A stretch of 64,000 bases of DNA, taken from positions 61,132,001 to 61,196,000 of the forward strand of contig OX597817.1 in NCBI GenBank assembly GCA_951406725.2. The letters are read 5' to 3'. The stretch is from Octopus vulgaris. Taxonomy: Eukaryota. The notes beneath the pieces were generated by a model. That model saw only the letters and a list, made by a program, of their open reading frames with translations. It was not told where the DNA came from and did no database searches. Position 1 is the stretch's first letter. Each line of letters opens with the position of its first letter. The position numbers and the translations under genes are program-made. Of this stretch, positions 16,358-45,611 are shown piece after piece.

Positions 16358-16446
<89 letters not shown>

Positions 16447-17604
16447 TCGTTCGCGGGTGAGTTCTACCAACATGTCTCGGGAGTGGCCATGGGAACGCGA
16501 ATGGGCCCCAACTATGCGAACGTGTTCGTTGGCTGCGTTGAGGCCCAAATATTCTCTAGTTTTACTGCTCCCACTCCCGAACTATACGGTCGTTACATTG
16601 ACGACATTATCGGTGCCACCTCACTCTCCCGTGAACATCTAGATTCCTTCCTCTCTTTCGTTCAATCCTTCCATCCTGTTCTCCACTTCACCTCCACTAT
16701 CCCCAACACCTCTGTCTCCTTCCTCGACATTTCGGTCAGCATTCATCACTCCACTCTTATCACCTCCATTCACTACAAACACACAGACTCACACTTATAC
16801 CTAAACTTCTCTTCCTCCCACCCCAAACACACCAAGCTTTCCATCGCCTATTCCCAATACCTCCGTCTACGTAGGCTCTGTAGTGACGACCATGACTTTG
16901 AGACTCAGTCTCATGGCTCGCCACTTCATCCTACGTGGATACCCCTTCACCACTATCCACACCGTCCTTGCCAGAGTACGTTCCGTAGACCGTGCATCTG
17001 CTCTCTCCCCCCGAACCCGCCCTTGTAGTCTCCCGACTCCCTTTTCCCCTCACTTCCCACCCCACCACCCTACCTCTCCAATGCACCATTCTTCGAGCTT
17101 TCCGGCATCTCCAGTCCGACCCGTCCACTTCACACCTCTTCCCTAACCGACCCCTCCCTTCATTCAAACGAGCCCATAACGTATGAGACCTCTTGGTCCA
17201 CAGCTTCTTCCCTGACCCTACCTCCCAACCTGGCTCGTTCCCCTGCTCCCGCCCACGTTGCCGCACTTGCCCTTACCTCTCCAACCCCACCCTCCTCACT
17301 GGCACCCATCATCGACTCCTTCACCTGCACCTCCAGCAATATCATCTATTATATCTCCTGCTCTCTCTGCCATTCCCTGTACATCGGACAAATGGGACGC
17401 CGCTTGGCTGACCGGTTCGCGGAACACCTCCGAGACATCCACCTTGCCAATGACACACCTGTCTCACGCCATTTCCGCTCCACCGGTCACTCCTTGCAAC
17501 ACCTGTCTGTGTTCGGATTGTCCTTGCACAGAGGCCATCCAGGTTCCCGCTTGCGCCGTGAACAGGGATTAATCTTCTCTCTTCGCTCTTTTACGCCATT
17601 TGGT

Positions 17605-24430: not shown

Positions 24431-24470
24431 GCTACAGACGCGTTTCGGGGTATTGCCCCTTTTCAATGTA
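24431..24470 (-). ncRNA. Minimal type I hammerhead (U3-A8 core)
   Basis: TACA-TTGAAAA-GGGG caata CCCC-GAAA-CGCG-TC-TGTA. Confidence 0.75.
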
Positions 24471-38731: not shown

Positions 38732-38738
<7 letters not shown>

Positions 38739-39034
38739 ATCACGTGACCGACCAGACATCAGATGTTGCTACACATCGCTGGTCACAATGCGTTCGCATT
38801 GTTTTTAGCCTTCGAATGACGCCACCCCGCTGGCTAAACGAGCAGGCCAACAGACGAAAGAGTGAGAGAAAGAGTGGTAAAAGGGTACAGCAGGGATCAC
38901 CACCCCCTACCGGAATCTCGTGGAGCTTTTTAGGTGTTTTCGCTCAATAAACACTCACAACGCCCGGTCTGGGAATCGAAACCGCGATCCTGCAACCACG
39001 AGTCCGCTGCCCTAACCACTGTGCCATTGCGCCG

Positions 39035-39035
<1 letters not shown>
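38732..39035 (-). mobile_element. OR-like tRNA SINE
   Basis: GGCGCAATGGCACAGTGGTTAGGGCAGCGG...GGTTTCGATTCCC; tail also seen at 50437-50560. Confidence 0.85.
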
Positions 39036-39432: not shown

Positions 39433-39490
<58 letters not shown>

Positions 39491-39523
39491 TTACATACAA
39501 GACCCAAAAGGGTACGGGCGCCG

Positions 39524-39577
<54 letters not shown>

Positions 39578-39666
39578 AGGAAAAATTTTTTAAAAAAATG
39601 CAGAATGCTCAAATGAAAGAAAATTTTAATAAAATGAGAAAATGATAAAATATATAAATGTATATT

Positions 39667-39707
39667 TATTCAACCGGTTTTCGTCATTGTATGACTTGTC
39701 AAGAATA
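39667..39707 (-). ncRNA. pLTR hammerhead-like motif (U3-A8 core)
   Basis: TATTC-TTGACAA-GTCA tacaa TGAC-GAAA-ACCGGTT-GAATA; identical copy at 44264-44304. Confidence 0.65.
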
Positions 39708-40340
39708 TTTATGTTTTAAGAAGTTTTTTTTTTAAATTAGAAAGGGAAAAAAAGAAAATTACATTGTTTTTTGTAAAAGAATAATGATAAAAATGTACAA
39801 AAATTAAAAAATAAGTTCTCCGATACATTGTGAGTTCGTTGTGTATCTTGCGTTTTATGGTTGTTTACGAAAAAATTACCTTGAGGTGTTAAGATCCAAA
39901 GGGATTAAGAGCATGTGTTGTGTTGTGTTGTTAAATTCAGCATGTTTGCAGGACAGGAAGTAGTAGTAATTGTGGTCCTGGTTCTTCAGTTCCTGTGTTG
40001 TGAGTAAGGGGAGACAACTCTTTTGAGTTCTTCAATAAAACCCAAATTATAAAATTATCATTTTAGCTTCATTTGCATTATCTTTTTTATATAATTGCTT
40101 GTTAACTTAACTTTCAGATTTTAACACTTTATTTACATTATTTTCTAATAATATAAATCTGCATAGACAATTGCATTTCAAATTGTCATATCATTTATAA
40201 TAAAAATGATAGTAATAACAACAATAGTAAAAATGATATTTAAAGAATATAAGTTTTAGCTTGAAGTGATGAATGCATGGTATCTTTATATATTTGTGTT
40301 AGTCCATCCATGAAAAGTGAGGTAGAGAAAGGAAGTTTGA

Positions 40341-42635
40341 TCAACGAGGAGTTTGCATATTAAGTTGTGTTTGGAATTTTTCAATAAAGAGATTCTCCTT
40401 GTTAATTCTCTCCTGTGTGGTGATCCCGTCTTTACATTGGTAGAAGGGGAATATATAGAATTTGGGGTTTAAGTCTTTAGCACATGAGTCTAAGTGGTCA
40501 CTCAGTGGAATTTGTCGGTATTCCGGGAGATTTATTTGTTCTTTATGCACCGTTACTCGTTTACGTAACGGGAGACTCGTTTGTCCAACATAATTATGTT
40601 GGCAACCAGCGCATGTGAGAACGTAGATAAGGTTCTCGGAGGAACAGGAGAAGTTAGTCTTGATTTTAAACTTCGTACCTTGTTTGAAGGTAAATTCAGA
40701 GCCTTCAAGTAGAAAGGGGCAGGTACCACAGTTTGAGCGTACACATTTTTTTACTGTTGGGAGTGGATGTGGTGTGTGAAGTTTGGCATTTGTCAAGAGT
40801 TTTTTTAAAGATTTGTGTTGCCTTTTGCATTTGAGGATTTTGTGTGTATTTATAATGTTTTTCATTTTTGGGTCTGTTGACAGTAGACTGAGGTTTTGTA
40901 TGATTGTGGTGTATGCTTCGATATTTTTGGGGTTGTGGGTGGAAATGTATGGAAGTATTTTGAGGTTGTGTGTGGTGTTAGGTTGGGTGGTTTTCAGTGT
41001 AGTGTTGTCTAGTTCTTTGGCGCGTTTTATTCCATACTCTATAAGGGTGGAGGGATATTGACGTTGTAATAGTGTTTTTTTGAGGTCTTGAAGGCGTATT
41101 TCTCGTGTTTTTGGATCCGAGACAATGGTGCATACCCTTTTAGCTAAATTGAAAGGGATATTTGTCTTGGTGTGTTTTGGGTGGCATGAACTAAAGAGGA
41201 GGTATTGTTGTGAGTCTGTAGGTTTGTGGTAGATGTCTGTTATGATTTGGTTCTTAGGTGTTTTTATAATTAGGAGATCAAGGAATGGGAGATGATGTTT
41301 GCTTAATTCCATAGTGAATTGGATGTTGGGATGTATGTTGTTTAGTATGGTTTTGAATTCCAGGAGTTTTTCATAAGGTTCTTTCCATATGATGAAACAA
41401 TCATCTAAATACCTTTTCCAGTTTTCCATTAGGTAGGTGTGGAAAACATGTCCAAATTTCTGGCTTGATATTTCATAGAGTGACAGTTCGAAGTAACCCA
41501 TTATGAGGTTCGCAAGGACTGGTGCAGCCTTGGTACCCATCGCAATGCCACATTTTTGACGGTAGTGTGTGTCGTCGAAGAGAAAAAAATTGTTTGTCAG
41601 AATGAACTTAAGAGATTCTGTAATAAAAGACTTGTTAATGCGGTCAGGGAATGTCTCTGGGTGTTTTTCTAGCCAGAAGTCAATTGCCTCTATACCATAC
41701 TCATGTGGAATGTTGGTGTAGAGGTTGATGACATCAAAGGATACCAGGAGTGCCTCCTCGTTAACTGTTTTCGGGAGGTGTTTGAGCATGTCCAGATCAT
41801 CCCTAATGAAACTTTTGATGTGGGTAAGGAAAGGTTTCAAAAGGATGTCTAGGAAGTTACTCAGGCGGTGTGTTTCACAGGAGGTACCAGCCACGATGGG
41901 CCTTAGTTTTAGGTCCTCCGGTGCTTTGATGTTGATGTGGATGTCAGTGGAGAGTTTGCAGGCTTCGGTGATGTATTTGTTTTTATGGATTTTAGGAAGG
42001 CCATAAAAAAGGCTGGGCTTGCATTTGAAAATGGTGATATAATCCCTTTCTTTTTCTGTGAGTCCCTGACCGTGTTGGCGTATGAGTGTGGTGAGGTTTC
42101 TGATTGTTTTTTGCTGTTTGTAGTTGTTAATAACCTCATAGAAAATGTTATTGTTAAGCATGGAGAACACTAGGTGTTTATAAAATTCCGTGTCCATAAG
42201 GACCACAGCACTCCCTTTGTCCGCTTCTTTGATGGTGAGGTTTTTATCCAGTTGTATGTCACGTAGGTTTTCCCATTCTTCCTTACTGAAATTGGATTTT
42301 ACCTTGGTTTTGCTTGGGGTAAAGGGGAGACTCTGGATGTGTTTACAGAAATCGTCCAGTGTTTTATTTCTCCCTTTTAGTGGTAGGAAGTTGCTTTTAT
42401 TTCTGATCAATGAGTCGTCCCCATTGTTGATATCTGTCAAAGCTTCTGTTAGGCGAAGTTTTCTGCAGAATTCAGAAACGTCATCCTTGGGTGTTCTTGG
42501 GGTGGGTGTGAATTTCAAACCTCTTGCTAGGATGTTGATTTGGGTTGGTGTCAGTGTTTTGCTGGAGAGGTTTATAATTTTTGTTTTCTTATTTTGGGTC
42601 TGTGTTAGCGGTGGTGTTTGTATTTTTCCCTCTGT
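40341..42635 (-). CDS. PLE reverse transcriptase - GIY-YIG endonuclease (ORF2; frame open up to the TAG at 42636-42638, no upstream ATG)
   Basis: IINLSSKTLT...RGLKFTP, ADKGSAVV, FYGLPKIHK, LRPIV, SFDVINLYTNIP, GIAMGT, RYLDD, FLDL; CVRSNCGTCP linker; NLIYVLTC..C...YVGQT...R; uninterrupted. Confidence 0.95.
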   Translation of the reverse strand, partial: TEGKIQTPPLTQTQNKKTKIINLSSKTLTPTQINILARGLKFTPTPRTPKDDVSEFCRKLRLTEALTDINNGDDSLIRNKSNFLPLKGRNKTLDDFCKHIQSLPFTPSKTKVKSNFSKEEWENLRDIQLDKNLTIKEADKGSAVVLMDTEFYKHLVFSMLNNNIFYEVINNYKQQKTIRNLTTLIRQHGQGLTEKERDYITIFKCKPSLFYGLPKIHKNKYITEACKLSTDIHINIKAPEDLKLRPIVAGTSCETHRLSNFLDILLKPFLTHIKSFIRDDLDMLKHLPKTVNEEALLVSFDVINLYTNIPHEYGIEAIDFWLEKHPETFPDRINKSFITESLKFILTNNFFLFDDTHYRQKCGIAMGTKAAPVLANLIMGYFELSLYEISSQKFGHVFHTYLMENWKRYLDDCFIIWKEPYEKLLEFKTILNNIHPNIQFTMELSKHHLPFLDLLIIKTPKNQIITDIYHKPTDSQQYLLFSSCHPKHTKTNIPFNLAKRVCTIVSDPKTREIRLQDLKKTLLQRQYPSTLIEYGIKRAKELDNTTLKTTQPNTTHNLKILPYISTHNPKNIEAYTTIIQNLSLLSTDPKMKNIINTHKILKCKRQHKSLKKLLTNAKLHTPHPLPTVKKCVRSNCGTCPFLLEGSEFTFKQGTKFKIKTNFSCSSENLIYVLTCAGCQHNYVGQTSLPLRKRVTVHKEQINLPEYRQIPLSDHLDSCAKDLNPKFYIFPFYQCKDGITTQERINKENLFIEKFQTQLNMQTPR

Positions 42636-42996
42636 CTAAAAAATGGTTGTTGAGGTAAGGGGTGTATTCTTTGTTAAAGTTCTGGTTGTATGTGTAGGAG
42701 TGTTTTTGGGTGGGGAGGTTGGAGGGGGTAGGTAGTTGTCGTATTTGTGTTGGTATGGGATGCGATGGTGTAAGGATTTGTGAGAAATGCGATGGGTTTG
42801 TGGGTGTGTGTCTGGTAGATTGTATGGGGGGATGTAGGGGGGTATGTAGTTGTGGTGATTGGGTTCGTGTGGGATGTGAGGGTTTGGAGATCTGTAGGAG
42901 ATGTGGTAGGAATGTGGTTGTTGGATGGGTGGACTATAGGGGGTTCGTTGGGTGGGTCTTATATGTATCGGTGTGGGTAGGATGCCTTGTTTGTTA

Positions 42997-44094
42997 TTAG
43001 TGTGAGGGAGGGGAGCCTTGAGGGGGGATAATTTTTAGTGTATGGGAGGTTCTTGAAGGTTCTAATCGGTGGGGGAGGGGTGTTAGGGTGATTGGAAAAC
43101 CAGGTTTTGTGGTGGGTCTTGTTTGAGATGTTTCGGGGGGAAAAGGTTTTTTATATGGTTGGGGGAGGTTGTGTCCTGTTAGGAGGGGGTTTGGAGAGTA
43201 TGTGTATTTGAGGTGCGGTTTGGAATGGTGTTTATGGGGTACAGTGGAAGTCTGTGTTGTGGGTACTTTTATGAATGGGTTTTTGGATTTATGGTTTAAT
43301 ATGAATTGTGTTTCATAGTTGAGGAAGAAATCTTTGTTGTTTTCCCAGCGTTTAAGGGAGGTTCGTTCTTCCTTTTCACATTCATCTTTCCATAGTTTAA
43401 TAACAAGTTCGAGGGGCTGTTCGTTGGTGTGTGAGGTTAGTTCTAGAAGTATCTCATCGTCTATTTTTGTGTATTTTTGTTCGTGGTTTTGTGCTCTGAG
43501 TTTTAGAAGTTCTACTTCGGTTTTCATTTTTTCCAATGTTAGTTTTTCTCTTAGGGAGCGTTGTTTTTCAGGTTCGTCTGGGATGTGTTTGATTTGGAAT
43601 TTACGGGGTAGTATGATAGGGGAGGAGTTTAACCATTTGTCGTAAATTTCAGCTTTGTTTTGGTTTTTGAGCATGTTCCAGAAGAGAAGTTTTCTGTTGT
43701 GTAGTTTCTTAGTCCAAGTAGTGATGATCTGGTTTTTAATGCGTTGTGCTGGGGTTGAAGTGTGTTCCTTCTGTGTGCTGAGTGGTGTCTGAGGTCTCTT
43801 TGGCGTTGAATTGGTAAGTAGAGTTTTCAGTGTAGTGTTGATTTCATTTAGGTTTACATCTATCTTATCCGAAAGTAGAGTTTTCAGTGTAGTGTTGATT
43901 TCGTTTAGGTTTACATCAATTTTATCCGAAAGTTGTTGATGATGGTTGTTTTCTGAGTTGTCCCGGGATTGATGGAGAAGTTCGTCAATTTTTTTGGAGA
44001 ATGTAAGTAGATGTGTATTGAGTACTTTGAGTTCTTTTAGAATGGTCTTATTGGTGACTGTCTCTGTAAGAGTGCTCTTGTTTTTCGGAGGCAT
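42997..44094 (-). CDS. PLE ORF1: coiled-coil-like N-terminus + Pro/His/Tyr-rich tail (probably extends to ~42.6 kb)
   Basis: 365-aa ORF with ATG just inside the 5' pLTR. Heptad-like K/E/L-rich segments. A 19-aa duplication shows only synonymous differences. Confidence 0.75.
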   Translation of the reverse strand: MPPKNKSTLTETVTNKTILKELKVLNTHLLTFSKKIDELLHQSRDNSENNHHQQLSDKIDVNLNEINTTLKTLLSDKIDVNLNEINTTLKTLLTNSTPKRPQTPLSTQKEHTSTPAQRIKNQIITTWTKKLHNRKLLFWNMLKNQNKAEIYDKWLNSSPIILPRKFQIKHIPDEPEKQRSLREKLTLEKMKTEVELLKLRAQNHEQKYTKIDDEILLELTSHTNEQPLELVIKLWKDECEKEERTSLKRWENNKDFFLNYETQFILNHKSKNPFIKVPTTQTSTVPHKHHSKPHLKYTYSPNPLLTGHNLPQPYKKPFPPETSQTRPTTKPGFPITLTPLPHRLEPSRTSHTLKIIPPQGSPPSH

Positions 44095-44263
44095 TCTGAA
44101 TCACACGTGTGGTAGAGGGTACAGATCAATAAATGGTGGGGTTGTGTTGACCGCACGTGGAGAAATGATAAGTAAGGAAAATTTTTTTTTAAAAATGCAG
44201 AATGCTCAAATGAAAGAAAATTTTAATAAAATGAGAAAATGATAAAATATATAAATGTATATT

Positions 44264-44304
44264 TATTCAACCGGTTTTCGTCATTGTATGACTTGTCAAG
44301 AATA
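44264..44304 (-). ncRNA. pLTR hammerhead-like motif (5' pLTR copy)
   Basis: Identical to 39667-39707. Confidence 0.65.
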
Positions 44305-44352
44305 TTTATGTTTTAAGAAGTTTTTTTTAAAAATTAGAAAGGGGAAAAAATG

Positions 44353-44410
<58 letters not shown>

Positions 44411-44413
<3 letters not shown>

Positions 44414-45097
44414 AAAAAATACAAACTGGGACAAAAACGCAAAACATTTAGAAGACGATACAAAAAACACGGACGGGACATTCTAAGCCTTCAATCTTCA
44501 GTCAAGAACCGAATCATCCTCGCAATTTCGGTTGATTAATCTTGAGATCGCTCCGATCCGGCCAGCCCCAAGGAAAAACTAAGCTACGAGCATTAGATTT
44601 CTTGGAAAAAGGATCGAATGTATACGAAACAAGGACAGAAAAACGGACGATGCCACAGGAATATAAATACAAAAAACAATAGTAGTAATAACAGGACAAA
44701 AACAGCGGGTGTCTTACGACTATAGACAGTACAACTTAGCTTAGCTGGCGTATTTGGAAAACAAGGCCTTTTTCGGCAGACGAAGCAAACGTTGTTCTCG
44801 TGGCGGTGGCCAGAAGCTGAAAGGTTGGTTGACCAGCGGTCACGTGAGAGGAGAAGAGAGAGAAAAAAAGGGGGCAAAGGAATCAAGGAGAGAGAGAAAA
44901 AGAGGGAACAAAGGCACCAAAGGAGGTGGGAGAAGAGAGAGAAAGAAGGAATTAAAGAGAGGAGAAAAAAGAGAGCGTGCCAAGGATTGGCTTGGCGACA
45001 GAATCAGTGAGGTGCAAAGTGAGAAAGACAGAGAAATATGAGAGAGTGGGGGAAGAGGAGACCAAAGAATCAGAGGCAAGAAAAGAGAAAAGGAGGA

Positions 45098-45137
<40 letters not shown>

Positions 45138-45272
45138 CAGATCAAAGTGGAGTGCAAAGTGTGAAAGGCAGAGAAATGTAGGAGAGGGGGGAGAGAGAGA
45201 CAGTGTTATAGAGTCGTACCAAATTTGAAGAAATATGTACTTAAATACAAGACCAAAAAGGGTACGGGCGTC

Positions 45273-45273
<1 letters not shown>
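44411..45273 (-). mobile_element. PLE-like 3' remnant (3'UTR + pLTR), second family, between microsatellites
   Basis: Its terminus is repeated at 45330-45549. A related sequence lies at 39237-39524. Carries a CTGAAGA motif. Confidence 0.6.
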
Positions 45274-45329
<56 letters not shown>

Positions 45330-45337
<8 letters not shown>

Positions 45338-45549
45338 ACAAACTGGGACAAGAACGCAAAACATTTAGAAGACGATACAAAAAACACGGACGGGACATTC
45401 GAATCATTCAATCTTCAGTCAAGAACCCAGCCGAAATTGCGAGGATGATCCGGTTCTTGACTGAAGATTGAAGGCTTCGAATGTCCCGGCCGTGTTTTTT
45501 GTATCGTCTTCTAAATGTTTTGCGTTCTTGTTCCAGTTTGTATTTTTTA
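45330..45549. repeat. Head-to-head inverted pLTR pair (~98-bp arms)
   Basis: 45330-45427 is a near-perfect reverse complement of 45451-45548; (TA)n on the left. Confidence 0.9.
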
Positions 45550-45557
45550 CATATACA

Positions 45558-45611
<54 letters not shown>

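Follow-up and report, generated by a model that had tools for sequence, protein, structure and literature searches.

Introduction

Endonuclease-bearing (EN+) Penelope-like elements (PLEs) are the sister group of telomerase reverse transcriptases (RTs), and target-primed reverse transcription after nicking by a GIY-YIG endonuclease is established for PLEs. Here we describe such an element in a stretch of 64,000 nucleotides from Octopus vulgaris (assembly GCA_951406725.2, contig OX597817.1, positions 61,132,001 to 61,196,000), referred to as the window throughout, in which it occupies positions 44350..39574 on the minus strand. A first-pass annotation made from the letters alone had proposed a young, near-intact EN+ PLE of a two-ORF Neptune lineage (ORF, open reading frame), with a separate gag-like ORF1. 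The present analysis confirms in outline a young, Neptune-like EN+ PLE with two ORFs, and comparison of sequences suggests that programmed −1 frameshifting at a U UUU UUA heptamer probably joins ORF1 to the RT–endonuclease frame.

Canonical EN+ PLEs are single-ORF elements according to PMC8557442, and PMC6431247 sets single-ORF EN+ elements against two-ORF elements lacking the endonuclease (EN−). The first-pass statement that GIY-YIG PLEs are usually described as single-ORF agrees with both sources, but two-ORF EN+ PLEs do have precedent in PMC12602865 and, with Chlamys-2_cBra, in PMC8557442. The former describes a Fundulus Neptune element, repeat.CL27, with two long ORFs; these are non-overlapping, however, ORF1 is only 420 nt long with no homology found, and the word "frameshift" is absent from the main text. 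Chlamys-2/-5_cBra likewise belong to an EN-bearing PLE group and have an upstream ORF1, but in the passages of PMC8557442 concerned this ORF1 has a gag-like zinc knuckle, the endonuclease of the Chlamys group is N-terminal, and no frameshift is described. The Neptune clade, as presented in the same source, shares with our element an RT followed by a C-terminal GIY-YIG domain with CCHH residues, a CX2-5CxxC linker with Neptune-like spacing, a partial tandem of pseudo-long terminal repeats (pLTRs), a tail, inverted truncated neighbours, microsatellite targeting and, putatively, a hammerhead-like core. It is, however, described as single-ORF, whereas our element carries a conserved ORF1 whose end overlaps the RT frame, with a −1 slippery site in the overlap.

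GDSL/SGNH ORFs occur in some Athena families (PMC5408684), and the legend to Fig. 1 of PMC8557442 speaks, without naming the clade, of an ORF1 set apart by a frameshift that has a pseudoknot. The present element differs from the Athena/Terminon type in its C-terminal GIY-YIG endonuclease, in (TA)n insertions on many chromosomes and in that no conserved pseudoknot or hairpin was found. The frameshift-separated ORF1 of that legend is probably of the EN− Athena/Terminon type, but it could also be an optional Neptune ORF1; Athena/Terminon-type elements resemble ours in a helical or coiled-coil ORF1 upstream of the RT, with a frameshift between the two. No description of an ORF1/RT slippery junction was found in the literature searched, outside which lay subscription papers, Repbase reports and bioRxiv supplements, so that absence from print is not established.

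Results and discussion

Two overlapping reading frames meet at a conserved heptamer

In the family state, ORF1 ends in His-Phe-Leu followed by ten codons; the Phe-Leu pair is encoded by U UUU UUA, and the RT frame lies in its −1 phase. The 0 frame thus contains an X XXY YYZ heptamer, and a −1 ORF overlaps it, as in canonical −1 frameshift sites. The elements of this junction are:

42605..44094, minus strand: ORF1, 497 amino acids (aa) in the family state, three frames in the assembled window copy
42637..42643, minus strand: slippery heptamer U UUU UUA, read in the ORF1 frame, as candidate site of −1 frameshifting
42605..42607, minus strand: ORF1 stop TAA, 10 codons past the heptamer in the family state
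40341..42643, minus strand: ORF2 in the −1 frame, with N-terminal PLE motifs, RT, CX4CXXC linker and GIY-YIG with CCHH; no AUG near its start

Within the element's own family (A), 19 of the 21 full copies retain the heptamer motif unaltered, and its T run is invariant between copies whereas C runs vary. Forty further stretches of the same genome were retrieved using an ORF1 homologue, and in seven families of this genome CATTTTTTAG stands at the ORF1 end with the RT in −1; the RTs of the four intact families are 57–73% identical. Beyond this genome, 91 loci were collected from metagenome and genome collections, and 12 of the 55 in which the RT N-terminus is visible have T TTT TT(A/G), in frame, where the RT frame starts. 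This −1 phase is shared by 19 junctions from distant families. In every junction the RT frame has no stop as far back as the heptamer, and it often closes shortly before it, with a stop 0–4 codons ahead of the heptamer in L121, L123, L126, L127, L129, L132 and L201, while an RT-frame ATG ahead of the first conserved motif is missing from 15 of 17 junctions. Conservation of the heptamer at an out-of-step overlap in such distant relatives suggests that ribosomes likely slip back one base here. L195, a close RT relative that looks decayed, is without the heptamer. A locus search with the ORF1 homologue P0146 found nothing, nor did a scan of viral contigs.

The protein-level data carry the same signature. 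ORF1 homologues fall into 595 clusters, and tails were analysed in 80 homologues of ≥330 aa, cluster representatives that share <50% identity and are nonetheless related. Phe-Leu (FL) occurs inside the last 45 aa in 67 of the 80, compared to 10 of 160 control windows. None of the 67 has K, E, Q, M or W, the residues without a U-ending codon, immediately ahead of FL (0/67 against a background of 21%, P 1e-7). At least 10 residues follow FL, exactly 10 in 23 of the 67, and these show no sequence conservation; at the DNA level, a tail of exactly 10 codons is found in 9 of 19 junctions. Fused proteins were absent from the top 150 ORF1 matches (longest 553 aa) and from the top 120 RT matches (longest 803 aa, range searched up to 1337).

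In an RT tree of 44 rows with 200 bootstraps, from which rows with <380 open codons were excluded (including L126–L129), the T6 rows form two groups with support of 100/99 and 100/100 that were never joined in the 200 bootstraps. The second group consists of L161 and L165, which keep the heptamer with tails of 11 and 10 codons, respectively, and carry a different ORF1 that ends in an SGNH/GDSL-like domain (34% identity between the two). The domain call derives from an Atlas lead of 0.92 and from PF13472 on 71% of the members of one cluster; a Pfam search gave no match to the domain, and a PDB sequence search with that of L165 gave none. A C-terminal GIY-YIG is present in L161:1-3500, and L165:965-4722 ends before that region. 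Two other related PLEs, L139 and L206, each have a single long ORF (949+ and 1006 aa), lack the slippery junction and serve as a single-ORF comparison group.

Candidate frameshift mechanism

Under −1 frameshifting, a minority of ribosomes would slip back one base at the heptamer and produce an ORF1–RT–endonuclease fusion of about 1,250 aa, leaving ORF1 in excess and the fusion minor, as in gag/pol. ORF1 may then act as an oligomeric RNA-binding protein or ribonucleoprotein scaffold, and integration would proceed through a GIY-YIG nick in (TA)n followed by target-primed reverse transcription. The logic of a structural ORF with a minor enzyme fusion is that of HIV-1 gag-pol, which also uses U UUU UUA; in contrast to HIV-1, no downstream stem-loop was found here, the 0-frame stop follows ten codons on, and ORF1 has neither a capsid match nor a zinc knuckle. 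If the RT is made as such a fusion, annotated RT proteins are about 490 N-terminal residues short, and a role emerges for the conserved ORF1 family, whose 595 clusters have no Pfam domain in common.

Given the slip, a ribosome terminating at the ORF1 stop could park the next ribosome on the heptamer, so that no RNA stimulator would be needed. A gap of 10 codons is the minimal spacing of colliding ribosomes and disomes pile up at stop codons (10.1101/2023.02.01.526718), and the terminating ribosome may accordingly be the roadblock. This queue is the most speculative step of the scheme, to which we give somewhat less than even chances, yet the fixed 10-codon spacing offers a natural and simple test of whether a terminating ribosome replaces RNA structure as the −1 stimulator. 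The heptamer, which precedes the ORF1 stop by the length of one ribosome (10 codons), may even be a portable, structure-free −1 cassette of Neptune-like PLEs with the terminating ribosome as roadblock, since it recurs in two separate RT lineages with unrelated ORF1s (helical and SGNH-like); we regard this extension as rather doubtful. If it holds, RT output depends on ribosome load. A 10/20/30-codon periodicity of the ORF1 tails was considered and dropped: the 20-codon tails of families C and F coincide with a TAA made by the RT motif, and thus lend the queue no support.

Several observations weigh against the proposed mechanism. The usual 3' stimulator, an RNA structure 5–9 nt downstream, did not appear in local folding without pseudoknots and long-range pairs, where a single junction of 17 gave z below −2 (family A: −2.9 kcal/mol, z −0.65). 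In three junctions the heptamer ends in UUG instead of UUA, the junction of family E, from a decayed copy, has a 3-codon tail, RT-frame ATGs lie 12 codons past the heptamer in families E and F, and L161 has ATGs around it. Many called RT homologues start with Met 5–15 residues ahead of the first motif, and a G-starting codon follows FL in 44 of the 67 homologues, an enrichment that a splice acceptor would likewise produce. The counts overstate independence because the homologues are related, L127/L129 and L122/L128 being near relatives. It should also be noted that the support for the slip comes from sequence comparison.

Alternative explanations for the overlap

The Met starts and the downstream ATGs would suit a separate RT protein, made by reinitiation after the ORF1 stop or by ribosomes that initiate internally, at a codon that overlaps this stop and is AUG or near-cognate, with the U run as a cis-signal. 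The RT-frame codon overlapping +11 is indeed ATG in families E and F, CTG in C, TTG in G and ATA in B and D, and the fixed distance from heptamer to stop fits a stop-start signal too. However, the same codon is CTA in the young family A, most junctions have no ATG, and the RT frame everywhere reaches back to the heptamer without a stop, often to be shut just upstream of it. Gene callers render GTG and TTG starts as Met and use any start on hand, and we consider separate initiation improbable. A splice at the junction, with the U-rich run and an AG serving as 3' splice site and ORF1 skipped, is favoured by the G-starting codons, by an AG after the U run in all seven families of this genome, and by the element's use of an acceptor ahead of ORF1 (see below) in a group known to carry introns. 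Conversely, L123, L130, L132 and L201 have no AG, 23 of the 67 homologues have no G-starting codon, and the 10-codon stop would be left unexplained. Contigs from five runs taken to be RNA (X2, X9, X17, X19 and X20; a guess, supported for X17 alone by its splice joint) show no joint at the ORF1/RT junction, with the reservation that contigs hide rare isoforms; those of X2, X17, X19 and X20 bridge the site, and the X17 contig runs through it unspliced. For an in-frame pair of upstream ATG and donor in the family A pLTR, which would suit splicing, no matching joint was seen and no counterpart in other families could be established by eye. Splicing is therefore highly improbable as the source of the RT.

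RNA polymerase slippage would reach the same fusion differently, as one extra U directly merges the frames in a minority of transcripts. Six U's are short for this process, though, and no insertion at the run occurs in the presumed RNA or the DNA contigs; moreover, the run is invariant between copies in which C runs vary, and its codon phase is conserved, which slippage does not need. It is very unlikely to account for the junction. That the element has a single ORF, broken here by mutation or assembly error, draws on the four other one-base shortfalls of the window copy, on 17 of 29 other copies that show an off-frame 14-nt state, and on the existence of the single-ORF relatives L139 and L206. 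Short-read contigs, however, mend the C/G runs and leave the junction as it is (see below), the −1 phase recurs among distant families, and no fused homologue is found among the top ORF1 and RT matches, which makes this alternative extremely unlikely. Programmed −1 frameshifting at the heptamer hence remains the probable explanation.

Assembled copy, family state and transcripts

The annotation of an ATG-initiated upstream ORF was correct, its start lying at 44094, but in the assembled window copy the upstream part is broken into frames of 365 (from that ATG), 132 and 114 codons. At four C/G runs, near 43134, 43021, 42723 and 42627, contigs from four short-read runs contain one base more at each site (4/4 runs); they have 15 additional bases at 42486 in three of the four runs (in the fourth, X12, the contig is interrupted there), and the T6 run shows no indel. 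Four more runs, compared with copy L032, show the same state wherever covered, and the natural copy L015 has the unbroken ORF1 of 497 aa that this state yields. With the C/G runs corrected, a single 497-aa ORF1 overlaps the RT frame in −1 phase; the family state therefore comprises two overlapping ORFs, not one continuous ORF. The three frames of the window copy likely reflect homopolymer under-calls that are systematic in this assembly and mask the true ORF layout, as judged from contigs of the family rather than from raw reads over this locus; RT slippage in individual copies may also shorten C/G runs. The 15-nt in-frame deletion at 42486 occurs in L015 too and is probably genuine. The window copy, in its assembled form, would be defective rather than near-intact.

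A DNA search of the same genome (2.8 Gb), in which 40 of 1,488 candidates were scored, gave at least 49 matches. Mean pairwise substitution divergence among 21 full copies is 0.75%, in line with the young age first proposed, and the copies vary chiefly in C/G run length. In 19 of 20 copies the 3' end reaches (TA)n, either directly or through a tail of ~48 nt or a few additional bases; the remaining copy is 3'-truncated. In the related family B, near-identical full copies with intact ORFs are arranged head to tail in L085, with a 4.4-kb period.

The 4,080-nt X17 contig has a 30-nt leader joined exactly after the CAG ahead of the ORF1 ATG. In the genome, this leader lies ~34 kb upstream of copy L012, with a GTGAGT donor at its end (exon site L212:1501-1531, C2:~195706014 in the same genome; L012/L041). 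As the contig also holds a variant unique to L012 among 30 copies, splicing does take place at this acceptor, in this case from an outside exon, and the chimeric transcript across ~34 kb is probably host-driven. X19 shares the L012 variant. Contigs of the presumed RNA runs carry no information on transcript level.

Layout and classification of the element

The remaining features of the element and its target are:

44171..44350, minus strand: 5' pLTR, a 5'-truncated upstream copy of the element's 3' end
44275..44299, minus strand: minimal hammerhead-like core variant (UUGACAA ... GAAA, then palindromic ACCGGU) in the 5' pLTR, from a pattern scan
44123..44170, minus strand: body start; its leading ~48 nt also occur, as an optional tail ahead of (TA)n, in the 3' flanks of 10/20 copies
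44096..44098, minus strand: splice acceptor CAG, one base ahead of the ORF1 ATG, from the joint in the X17 contig
43816..43929, minus strand: tandem duplication of 57 nt (19 aa) in the ORF1 N-terminal helices, from repeat comparison; absent from copy L027
41292..41867, minus strand: RT core, Pfam RVT_1, aa 257-448, 32.4 bits, above cut-off
40368..40631, minus strand: GIY-YIG endonuclease, aa 669-756, 19 bits, E 0.0017, below the curated cut-off of 22.6
39574..40340, minus strand: 3' untranslated region (UTR) including the 3' pLTR (39574-39753)
39678..39702, minus strand: second hammerhead-like core, in the 3' pLTR, from a pattern scan
39524..39573, no strand: (TA)n target microsatellite; a TA/TG run is also present at the other end, from 44351 onward

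The pLTRs are nearly identical, as had been noted: the direct repeats 39574-39753 and 44171-44350 are 180 nt each and align ungapped at 97% identity. The length of the 5' pLTR differs between copies, and short-read contigs have loose ends at 44123-44125. Similar, putative hammerhead-like cores are visible in families B, C and D; the pattern is our own rather than an Rfam model, and an Rfam scan returned no hammerhead match, only microsatellite-driven microRNA and small nucleolar RNA noise. The RT/GIY-YIG frame is stop-free over 764 codons (42635->40344), as first described, albeit this count runs from stop to stop and the first Met lies ~147 residues in, past conserved N-terminal motifs. In addition to the below-threshold Pfam score, the Cys/His (CCHH) residues of the GIY-YIG domain are visible and close homologues carry PF01541.

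The element is thus a real feature with the main traits of EN+ PLEs: a PLE-type RT followed by GIY-YIG with CCHH, a partial tandem of pLTRs, an optional tail and inverted truncated copies. Because it has two overlapping ORFs rather than a single one, it is a variant and not a canonical member. The Neptune-like placement, as the first-pass annotation had it, is supported by the CX4CXXC linker, which falls within CX2-5CxxC, by the long spacer from linker to GIY, which by eye fits the Neptune and not the Nematis rows in the text of Fig. S2 of PMC8557442, and by the bias for insertion into (TA)n microsatellites; it derives from these traits, the RT tree being without named Neptune references.

The ORF1 protein and its homologues

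ORF1 consists of long N-terminal helices, a conserved helical core (aa ~112-280) and a disordered tail rich in Pro, His, Tyr and Asn, and the AlphaFold model has a confident helical core with pLDDT above 90. A dN/dS of about 0.13-0.38 between families indicates that the core (aa 112-280) is under purifying selection, and together with the 595 clusters this establishes ORF1 as conserved in relatives. Pfam found no family in common among ORF1 and 105 homologues; no CCHC zinc knuckle is present in the ORF1 sequence, and no such Pfam match occurred in the 106 members. An ESM Atlas search with the core gave no usable match, and Foldseek against PDB and BFVD, together with VIA-align, gave no match specific to ORF1, which is not proof of a new fold; the best structural match is a generic helical bundle (Z 9.1, root-mean-square deviation 6.4 over 124 residues). 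"Gag-like" therefore fits ORF1 by position only, given the missing zinc knuckle and capsid match, and "separate" fits in that it is an ORF of its own, but one that overlaps the RT frame at the conserved −1 heptamer.

Close RT relatives of the element were found in bivalve-symbiont assemblies. L201-L211 are eukaryote-type PLE contigs within bacterial metagenome-assembled genomes, with RT homologues labelled as bacterial proteins, and likely represent host contamination.

Neighbouring repeats in the window

The PLE sits in the (TA)n of a non-autonomous repeat of ~0.9 kb (44357-45562 and 39483-39523), which itself shows a PLE-like partial tandem plus an inverted copy and whose insertion-free junction recurs at 45233-45427. 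Mobilisation of local non-autonomous hammerhead elements by this PLE, as suggested at first, is unsupported, because blastn detected no sequence in common between the ~0.9-kb repeat and the UTRs of this PLE family; a general link between PLEs and retrozymes is argued in 10.64898/2026.07.22.740005. The pattern scan gave further hammerhead-like cores at 24466(-), 24573(+), 55159(-) and 59628(-), none with an Rfam match. Degenerate PLE RT/EN fragments with about 30% identity to this RT lie at 16444-17496 (+), and a GC-richer stretch of ~300 nt between microsatellites at 38733-39035 gives the impression that it may be a short interspersed element.

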